Source of the DNA: Escherichia coli
GTDB taxonomy: Bacteria > Pseudomonadota > Gammaproteobacteria > Enterobacterales > Enterobacteriaceae
Assembly (NCBI RefSeq): GCF_003334765.1
Contig: NZ_QOWT01000021.1
Strand: one strand, 5' to 3'
DNA: 64,000 nucleotides
Position 1 is the stretch's first letter; each line of letters begins with the position of its first letter. A program made the translations under genes and the position numbers. Shown here in pieces: positions 20,069 to 25,694 of the stretch. Under the pieces are notes generated by a model that worked only from the letters and a program-made list of their open reading frames with translations, was not told where the DNA came from and made no database searches.

Positions 20069-20539
20069 TTAAGATGTTGATTCGGCGCGAGCGAGGGTAA
20101 AAATATCGTAAAAAGACAGTTCACCTTTACGGACGATCATTTTTTGCAGTTGTTCCTTATGAACATCCGCGACACGCGGAGAGTTCAAGATGGCTTCAAC
20201 CAGCGCGGCAGGTACAAAGCGCGTGTTGTACCATTCGCCGTTATAGCAAACGCGGAAATCCAGCACGTCGATATCTTCATAGCGGTAGCGTGGGTAGACA
20301 TCGAAAAAGAAGAAACCATTAAGCAGGATAAATAATACAACCAGTAGCCAGACAGAGCCTGACAGCGTTTCGGACTGCAACATCACCGCCAGGGTGGCAA
20401 AAAAAGCAACGTACATACCGATAAACAGCCCCGGATGTTTACGGATAAAACTGATACTAAAGCGGGGTTTGTTGTCGCGTTTTTCGCGGGTATTCAGAGA
20501 CTCAATCGTTTCGGTCAGCAGGCGTTGTATTTCGGTCAT
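20069..20539 (-). CDS. ylaC: Inner-membrane protein YlaC (156 aa)
   Basis: Start set at ATG 20537-20539 ([15 protein letters not shown]); two hydrophobic TM segments. Confidence 0.88.
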
Positions 20540-20654
20540 CGTTTGCCTTCGTGGTATCTGCAACTTTCCAGGGAACACCCTATTTTAACGTGGGAATAGT
20601 AGAGGGGAAGTAACAGATCTACCACAATTTTGCATAACAGTTGCGAAAAACCGA

Positions 20655-21206
20655 TTACAATTTTTTAATTATTCTGGCTGGATTACCGCCCACGACAACG
20701 TTGTCCGGGACATCTTTTGTGACAACTGCACCTGAGGCTACCACGACGTTATCACCAATGGTCACACCAGGGTTAATGACCGCGCGTCCGCCAATCCAGA
20801 CGTTATTACCGATGGTGACGGGTTTCCCCAGTTCAGCACCGCTATTACGTGCTACAGGGTCGATGGGATGTGTTGCCGTGTAGATATGAACGCCTGGTGC
20901 CAACATACAGTTATCACCGATGCGAATAGGGCAGACATCAAGCATCACGCAATCGAAGTTGGCGAAAAAATTATTACCGAGAAAAATGTTATAGCCATAG
21001 TCACAGCGAAACGTTGGCTCAATATAAGCCTCTGTCACCTGACCGAATAGATCAGCGAGAATTTGCTGGCGTAATGTGTGCTCTTCCGCCAGGGAATGAT
21101 TGTATCGGTGAATAAGCTGACGAGCGCGCAGGCGATCGCGAGATAACGTCTCATCTGCCGAGCGATACAACTCACCAGCAATCATCTTTTCTTTTTCTGT
21201 GCTCAT
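20655..21206 (-). CDS. maa: Maltose O-acetyltransferase, left-handed beta-helix hexapeptide repeat (183 aa)
   Basis: Hexapeptide repeats ([15 protein letters not shown]..., [25 protein letters not shown]). Confidence 0.95.
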
Positions 21207-21377
21207 TACTGACCTCCGGTTGCTGAAAATGCGGCAACACAGTAAGACGAAAAGTCAGTGAAGAGAACGTTCCCATTACATCTGTGTGATAAAGATCACA
21301 TAGGGTATGTCTTCATGGCGAAAAAGTATAAAATTCTTAATAAACAGCCGGTTATAGCTCCGAAAGCGAATTATTTA

Positions 21378-21596
21378 TTAGCGAATAAATTTCCATACTG
21401 AGGAAGGGATCTTGTCGTACAGTTTATTCATGGTCAATTCGGCGAGGCGGTGATCTGCGGCTGAGTAAAATACCGCCAGTTCATTATCTGATAATTCGTA
21501 TTTATTTTTCTCGATAACACGCTCCAGCGTGTCAATTGTCTGGCAACGACGTAAACGCATTAAATAATCGGTTTTCGTTAAAGGTTTTTCGGACAT
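21378..21596 (-). CDS. hha: Hha haemolysin-expression modulator, H-NS co-regulator (72 aa)
   Basis: Track ORF 21378-21842 is over-extended; ATG 21594-21596 gives [27 protein letters not shown]. Confidence 0.95.
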
Positions 21597-21621
21597 ACTT
21601 CTACCTATGGTTGTAATAATT

Positions 21622-21996
21622 CTAACAAGATAAACTCGCAGGATTCTCTTTCGTCGCATTGACAAAACAACGGAATAGTCGATTACCTGACTTCCGCCAT
21701 TTCTGAAGATCCTGCATATTAATACCATAACTACTGAACAACATAAAGGTGTCATCCAGATATTCGTCGATCTGCTCAATGAGCTTATTGTCTTCATTAT
21801 ACTTAATTTTGTAATTAAGTGCGAAGGTCGCAATATGCTCAATCAGTTCATTCAACTGGAGGTTGATCGCCGAGGTTGGGTCGTTTACCCAGCCATGATT
21901 GCTTTCTTCAAGGTTTGCAAGGCAGTCATGATACAGGGTTTCACAGAGAAACTTAAGCTGTGCGATATCATGTCTTTTGGGTGAGTATTCATCCAT
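21622..21996 (-). CDS. tomB: TomB (YbaJ), Hha-associated modulator (124 aa)
   Basis: Full-length match [26 protein letters not shown]; immediately upstream of hha in the same orientation. Confidence 0.93.
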
Positions 21997-22501
21997 AACG
22001 CGTCCCCTTCTTAGCGGTTGAACTAACGGACACCTTTCGGGATGGAAAAAACTTACTGACCTGGACTTGCCCTCTCGTTTGTTAGCTTAACTATAAGCCA
22101 CTCTTTGCAGGTTTTCATCGCATTATTACGAAAAATTACAATTAGGAAGGAAGCGGGACAGGACTCACTTTTTCATACTAGCACTAACCCGCAGCAGGTA
22201 AAAGCAGTTTGCTCGAACTATTCATAACATTTCAGGATTATCGCCAGATGAAATTGGTGACACTAATACCAGGATTGCTCTGAATATGACGTAATAACCG
22301 AGGAATGAATAAAGAATTACCGCAAATAATTAAGAATAGCCTCTAAATGATTATGGATTATTAAATCTATTAGCGCTACTTAATATAAATTAACTAACAA
22401 TCAGTATTTTTTATGAATTTTATCCGTGGTTAATACTGGTTTTCGTATGAGATCCTGAGTTGGTGGTTCAATTACTCCTTAATGTTCGTAGGTTATGCAT
22501 A

Positions 22502-22527
22502 AAAAAGGCCGCTTACGCGGCCTTAGT
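22502..22527 (-). terminator. Rho-independent terminator of acrAB
   Basis: On the minus strand GGCCGCGTAAGCGGCC hairpin followed by TTTTTT, just downstream of the acrB stop. Confidence 0.8.
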
Positions 22528-22541
22528 GATTACACGTTGTA

Positions 22542-25694
<3,153 letters not shown>

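Follow-up and report, generated by a model that had tools for sequence, protein, structure and literature searches.

Hha is described in the literature as a protein of 72 aa that partners the nucleoid protein H-NS and would help to silence horizontally acquired and virulence genes, and it is reported to be toxic upon over-production. It binds to the N-terminal domain of H-NS (PMC2408971, PMC5133643). The toxicity of over-expressed Hha is attenuated by YbaJ (TomB), which is encoded in the same operon at a distance of 25 bp, and Garcia-Contreras et al. (2008) proposed a toxin-antitoxin reading of the pair on the basis of the shared operon, the small sizes and also the autoregulation of Hha (PMC2408971). 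Marimon et al. (2016) found that the antitoxin activity of TomB requires oxygen and that YmoB can replace TomB in vivo. By NMR, the variant [C117S]YmoB touched Hha only transiently. It also accelerated the oxidation of C18 in Hha, and this oxidation, with -SOxH species as its products, destabilised Hha; the in-vitro oxidation was carried out with this variant rather than with TomB itself, and cysteine-free YmoB retained some antitoxin activity (PMC5155140). According to the same authors, the Hha cysteine is conserved in nearly all family members (PMC5155140). Reviews have labelled the system a type VII toxin-antitoxin system (PMC11951105). In S. Typhimurium, Jaiswal et al. (2016) reported a labile TomB, a stable Hha, and a stable, SDS-resistant complex of the two with a co-purifying band of ~25 kDa (PMC5133643).

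Several described systems are close to this pair. The ymoB-ymoA pair of Yersinia is orthologous: YmoB (PDB 2mn2) aligns with TomB residues 1-112, and YmoA (PDB 2k5s) matches Hha with an E-value of 3.7e-34. YmoB has two cysteines (C18 and C117) and a shorter C-terminus, whereas TomB has four cysteines. Plasmid-borne Hha-family genes (IncF, IncI/K, IncH and others) belong to the same HHA fold family and have no tomB partner. The chromosomal paralogue YdgT/Cnu is another member of this fold family; Hha used as a query hits NCBIfam NF007703 below the cut-off, and also PDB 2jqt. Classical type II modules such as relBE and mazEF likewise consist of two small co-oriented genes, with the antitoxin first, a short spacer and, as reported, negative autoregulation. 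Unlike their toxins, Hha is a cofactor of a nucleoid protein and not an enzyme, and its neutralisation is reported to be chemical and transient. Unlike the patchy type II modules, tomB-hha is a core locus that is syntenic across Enterobacteriaceae.

Identity and layout of the tomB and hha genes

The window, i.e., the whole 64,000-nt stretch of E. coli DNA that was analysed (contig NZ_QOWT01000021.1 of assembly GCF_003334765.1), carries on its minus strand a chromosomal module of two genes, tomB followed by hha, that are very probably translated separately and are identical to b0461 and b0460 of E. coli K-12 (Table 1). Positions 21201-22600 are 100% identical to E. coli K-12 MG1655 (NC_000913.3), in whose RefSeq annotation hha and tomB are distinct CDSs with 25 nt between them, flanked by maa and acrB. 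With the same sequence, neighbours and spacer, no difference from the K-12 tomB-hha (ybaJ-hha) locus was found, and the two are the same locus. Earlier publications describe the locus, its organisation in two genes, the 25-bp spacer and also the oxidation model; the feature is already known.

Table 1 Features of the tomB-hha region (positions in the window)
Feature	Coordinates	Strand	Description and basis
maa, downstream neighbour	20655..21206	-	ORF listing, annotation
hha (b0460) CDS	21378..21596	-	72 aa + TAA; ATG at 21596, TAA stop at 21378-21380; ORF listing, profiles, structures
tomB-hha spacer	21597..21621	-	25 nt, sequence AATTATTACAACCATAGGTAGAAGT; carries the predicted hha ribosome-binding site
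Upstream extension of the hha frame, very probably non-coding	21597..21842	-	82 codons from TTG 21842; overlaps tomB codons 52-124 in the +1 frame
tomB (ybaJ, b0461) CDS	21622..21996	-	124 aa + TAG; ATG at 21996, TAG stop at 21622-21624; ORF listing, profiles, MG1655 annotation
Promoter-like block upstream of tomB	22085..22145	-	-35 ATGAAA from 22118, 17-nt spacer, -10 TATAGT ending at 22090, A/T-rich tract before; promoter scan and alignment
Predicted intrinsic terminator of acrAB	22505..22524	-	AAGGCCGCGTAAGCGGCCTT followed by a T-run; terminator scan, stem kept in the 67-locus alignment
acrB, upstream neighbour	22542..25691	-	ORF listing, annotation

The identity of Hha was supported by full-length matches to several resources. 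It matched Pfam HHA (PF05321) with an E-value of 9.5e-40 over model positions 1-57 of 57, NCBIfam NF008191 with 169.1 bits (cut-off 90) over profile positions 1-72 of 72, and the Hha structures PDB 1jw2 and 2mw2 over its full length (1.2e-44). It also matched a chain of PDB 4icg (3.8e-44), an H-NS complex. The translation contains 72 amino acids with C18 as the sole cysteine. TomB matched Pfam YbaJ (PF10757) with an E-value of 1.1e-65 (residues 1-117; model positions 1-117 of 118), the NCBIfam equivalog NF007948 with 234 bits (cut-off 108), and the NMR structure of YmoB (PDB 2mn2) with 2.3e-50. Its N-terminus, MDEYSPKR, is unchanged among 17 homologues, and with K15, L17, C18 and E19 it has the K/R15-L17-C18-E/D19 setting of the TomB/YbaJ family around the buried C18; F108 and F111 are the channel residues. 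All residues named by Marimon et al. (2016) are present, namely C18 of Hha and C18, C25, C110, C124, F108, F111, N49, E53, A56, E78, D81, D82 and F84 of TomB. Most of the TomB channel and Hha-contact residues are invariant or nearly so in the alignment of the 17 homologues.

The comparative set comprised the tomB loci of 80 Enterobacteriaceae species (the best 80, all from that family), 67 of which were aligned for position-wise conservation. In all 80 loci, as well as in Erwinia and Providencia, tomB is immediately followed by a co-oriented hha-family gene. Within the species, the module was found in 5425 of the 5426 complete E. coli genomes, in 5203 of them at 99% identity or more to the 871-nt query.

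The initial annotation had described two co-oriented genes separated by 25 bp. The coordinates were reproduced exactly, and the same spacer figure was given by Garcia-Contreras et al. (2008; PMC2408971). This length is true here but confined to few lineages, spacers of 27 or 26 nt being the most common across the 80 Enterobacteriaceae species. The spacer measured 27 nt in 40 loci, 26 nt in 23, 25 nt in nine, 23 nt in three, 28 nt in two and 24 nt in one, so that 78 of the 80 fell between 23 and 28 nt; the remaining two, both from Leclercia, had spacers of 7-8 nt and a longer TomB. Because the spacer length varies, the frame of hha relative to tomB varies as well. In the window the two starts are 400 nt apart, which shifts the reading frame of hha by +1 with respect to that of tomB.

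The start of hha itself does not vary. It is an ATG in all 80 loci, and each of them has a GGT core (usually AGGT) 6-8 nt before this ATG. The AGGT Shine-Dalgarno core of the window lies inside the spacer at 21603..21606. Conservation and anatomy together suggest that hha would be translated from its own ATG through this ribosome-binding site. The RNA of the tomB-hha junction folded no more strongly than shuffled sequence (z = +0.89), giving no sign of a masked hha ribosome-binding site or of a frameshift stimulator.

Predicted transcription signals around the pair

The gap between acrB and tomB is 545 nt long, AT-rich and mostly unconserved, with a GC content of ~30% at 22200-22500. The only strongly conserved non-coding block in it is the promoter-like block of Table 1, which is near-invariant among the 67 aligned Enterobacteriaceae loci and precedes tomB by ~90-150 nt. 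Its sequence makes it the probable promoter of tomB-hha, possibly with an upstream element. An ATG within the block opens a 21-codon ORF, which was rejected as a small gene: three-base periodicity was not seen, and the conservation ends in the middle of the ORF.

The anatomy suggests that the pair would be transcribed from the conserved block, past the acrAB terminator, which would separate the transcription of acrAB from that of tomB-hha. Co-transcription is reported in the literature (PMC2408971); the sequence itself shows adjacent, co-oriented genes, with a predicted terminator and one conserved promoter-like block upstream of them. A further promoter-like match, TTCGCA-18-TATAAT at 21825..21796, lies inside tomB; such hits numbered 4 in the region versus 4.1 in shuffled sequences. 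An Rfam scan of 20500..23000 at E <= 1 gave no match.

In the 171 nt that separate hha from maa (21207..21377), neither the terminator scan nor folding (z = -0.81) revealed a convincing intrinsic terminator. This spacer contains the palindrome TGTGATCTTTATCACA at 21283..21298, ~85 nt upstream of the maa start, which is an exact TGTGA-N6-TCACA match to the half-sites of a CRP site. In the 67-locus alignment the half-sites show moderate conservation, in contrast to the flanking hha-maa spacer, which is unconserved.

Conservation of the pair and of its neighbourhood

The adjacency to acrAB had been put forward as conserved. Within Enterobacteriaceae this held: acrB lies upstream in the same orientation in all 76 loci with enough upstream DNA (tblastn), usually at a distance of ~440-560 nt, and maa lies downstream in most of the 80 loci. 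Outside the family the statement did not hold in full, as the adjacency is loosened in Erwinia amylovora and absent in Providencia alcalifaciens. In E. amylovora, acrB is ~4 kb off, with seven genes between it and tomB (ykgM- and ykgO-like ribosomal protein genes, a Znu-like ABC transporter and small ORFs), and the tomB-hha spacer is 29 nt. P. alcalifaciens retains both genes of the pair, 72 nt apart, and downstream of them, as in E. coli, ybaY-tesB-mdlBA. The genes upstream of the pair are mltD-gloB-rnhA-dnaQ, and no AcrB homologue was found within 8 kb of it. These two loci indicate that the tomB-hha pair is the conserved unit and that the adjacency to acrAB is a feature of Enterobacteriaceae.

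The two proteins differ in their rate of change. Identity to E. coli in Providencia is 44% for TomB versus 85% for Hha, and in Erwinia it is 77% versus 86%; TomB diverges much faster than Hha. C18 is kept in both TomB and Hha of Erwinia and Providencia.

Insertion alleles were also observed. IS1 lies within the module (about 21400..22170) in six complete E. coli genomes that are unrelated to each other and derive from poultry, cheese and humans in five countries. The insertion site differs in each of the six, and both orientations occur; one insertion is in hha, three are in tomB and two in the promoter/leader region. These insertions could reflect a bias of IS1 towards AT-rich DNA, or selection in favour of changed amounts of Hha and TomB. 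In the K-12 derivative CV601 and its relatives, IS5 has inserted into the acrB-tomB gap, on the acrB side of the conserved promoter-like block.

Mode of action of TomB

In the oxidation model, TomB, a four-helix bundle, would contact Hha transiently and accelerate the oxygen-dependent oxidation of C18 to sulfenic, sulfinic or sulfonic acid, and this modification would unfold and inactivate Hha. The description of the pair as toxin-antitoxin-like, with inactivation by oxidation, agrees with Marimon et al. (2016; PMC5155140), but the chemistry was shown with [C117S]YmoB, and in the Salmonella study the two proteins are claimed to form a stable complex (PMC5133643). Hha is called a toxin on the strength of over-expression.

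An alternative is that TomB acts as a classical type II antitoxin, holding Hha in a stable stoichiometric complex instead of promoting its oxidation. The co-purification, the ~25 kDa band, the labile TomB and the stable Hha of Jaiswal et al. (2016; PMC5133643) speak for this reading, and the antitoxin-first order, short spacer and negative autoregulation suit type II habits. Against it stand the merely transient contacts of [C117S]YmoB with Hha by NMR and the oxygen dependence of the antitoxin activity (PMC5155140), together with the genomic distribution. A toxin that always comes with its antitoxin and a patchy, mobile distribution are typical of type II modules, if not strictly defining, and neither was found for tomB-hha: the module is a syntenic core locus, and plasmids carry hha genes with no tomB partner.

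The plasmid distribution was obtained by tblastn against 72,556 plasmids. Hha homologues with 55-68% identity were found on at least 5000 plasmid records, mostly conjugative. TomB was found on only 14 records of the collection, six of which are 1.2-5.4 Mb long. The one smaller TomB record that was inspected, NZ_CP137697.1 (128 kb), carries the complete chromosomal acrAB-tomB-hha-maa-ylaC-pdeB segment and is apparently a piece of chromosome deposited as a plasmid. Two true plasmids were inspected; in them hha had no tomB-like neighbour and sat between excA genes or among hypothetical genes. Considering both sides, we regard a type II mode of action as improbable.

The open +1 frame and TomB-Hha fusions

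The ORF lister, which takes as the start the first ATG, GTG or TTG past a stop, gave a single ORF of 154 aa over hha (21378..21842, TTG start). Codon-by-codon reading confirmed that the hha frame is stop-free from tomB codon 52 onwards, i.e., through the last 73 tomB codons. The +2 frame of tomB has a dozen stops across the same stretch (codons 52-124).

This open run is not a general property of the locus. The extension of the hha frame is just 3 codons long in 40 of the 80 Enterobacteriaceae loci, and a length of 82 codons was found in only two, those of E. albertii and one Escherichia sp. The offset of the hha frame to tomB was 0 in 41 loci, 2 in 27 and 1 in 12. Even within the genus the frame can be closed: three stops occur in the extension among Escherichia sp. 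E1V33, E. whittamii and a cryptic-clade 'E. coli', all of them arising from synonymous third-position changes in tomB.

The probability of such a run was estimated in two ways. When the synonymous codons of tomB were permuted, 8% of the permutations had an extension of at least 82 codons. An open run of that length precedes ~1% of random +1-frame positions of long ORFs in the window, and since the window has some sixty genes, one such run is expected. The open 82-codon extension is thus only mildly unusual and compatible with chance.

Proteins that join TomB to Hha do exist in nature. The homologue search identified at least 14 distinct proteins of 151-205 aa with both Pfam domains in public genomes and read assemblies, a count taken from 120 of the 297 homologues listed. 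The extension frame links TomB to Hha in these proteins; the junction falls at TomB residue 97, 105, 106, 107, 110, 115 or 121, and two further fusions derive from in-frame deletions. The fusion alleles that were checked in the DNA are single-base deletions. The deletion at codon 107 belongs to an E. albertii-like lineage that is ~8% divergent and was present in four contigs from at least three samples; because it recurs across samples, it is inherited and no sequencing error. A deletion in the T-run at codon 110 was found in two samples, and deletions at tomB codons 115 and 116 are two DNA events with an identical protein product. These alleles are what an open +1 frame predicts for a one-base deletion, and they are no evidence that the long ORF is translated in the wild type. 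That wild-type cells make TomB-Hha fusions at a low level, or that some lineages select them, so that the modulator would be tethered to its target with altered regulation, seems very unlikely to us.

Salmonella enterica has a 27-nt spacer that puts hha in the frame of tomB, but the genes are separated by tomB's own stop and by a second in-frame stop, a TAG located three codons ahead of the hha start. At ~25 kDa, the SDS-resistant Hha-TomB band of Salmonella (PMC5133643) is close to the mass of a fusion. Making one by read-through would require ribosomes to pass both stops and seems unlikely.

A more specific proposal is that low-level +1 ribosomal frameshifting within the last 73 tomB codons produces a 205-aa TomB-Hha fusion and that the frame has been kept open for this purpose. 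The absence of stops in the +1 frame from tomB codon 52 to the hha ATG, the rare codons CGA-CUA at tomB codons 106-107, the reported repression of rare-codon tRNA genes by Hha (PMC2408971) and the stable fusion alleles yielded by natural 1-nt deletions are in its favour. However, the required offset of 1 occurs in just 12 of the 80 species, the frame is closed in the three other Escherichia lineages named above, and the open run is compatible with chance. Furthermore, inspection by eye at the tomB stop, judged against the prfB site, revealed neither a slippery codon for re-pairing nor a Shine-Dalgarno stimulator upstream, and the junction shows no local RNA structure. A programmed +1 frameshift is unlikely, and the full proposal, including a frame maintained for it, is extremely so.

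The remaining alternative is that the 154-aa ORF, from TTG 21842 to TAA 21378, is translated into a single protein, an Hha with an N-terminal extension whose coding sequence overlaps tomB. It draws on the 82 open codons upstream of the hha ATG, on the rarity of an equally long run among random +1-frame positions in the window, and on its several candidate starts, i.e., TTG 21842 and the in-frame ATGs at tomB codons 67, 81, 90 and 113. The NCBIfam scan contradicts it: only residues 83-154 of the long ORF match a profile, spanning the whole 72-position Hha profile, and residues 1-82 have no family match. The solved Hha structures are those of a 72-aa protein. Conservation of tomB third positions was 0.632 in codons 1-51 versus 0.614 in codons 52-110, which lie in the overlap (67-locus alignment); as third positions are no better conserved there, no second frame constrains them. 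Together with the extension of just 3 codons in half of the species, a frame relation that shifts with spacer length, the synonymous stops within Escherichia and the 8% chance probability given the TomB amino-acid sequence, this leaves the extended protein close to refuted and almost without probability.

The evidence thus strongly supports the view that the 154-aa ORF is the hha frame, by chance stop-free back through tomB, and not a gene. The initial annotation had called it an artefact of an in-frame upstream extension, and the variable frame and extension length, the synonymous stops, the lack of third-position constraint and the placement of the profile hit all bear this out.

Implications for the biology of the pair

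The 154-aa ORF can be dismissed on evidence and need not be carried forward. The open frame has a consequence in E. coli and E. albertii, where any +1 shift in the last 73 tomB codons, whether ribosomal or by a one-base deletion, gives a 205-aa fusion. The reach of the acrAB adjacency is now sharper: it holds in Enterobacteriaceae, is loosened in Erwinia and does not extend to Providencia.

Two cautions apply to the toxin-antitoxin label: plasmid hha genes without tomB are abundant, and the chromosomal pair acts as a core syntenic locus. Considering these two facts, a picture in which Hha is primarily an H-NS cofactor and TomB its chromosomal modulator fits better than a mobile addiction module, and this picture does not contradict the published oxidation mechanism.
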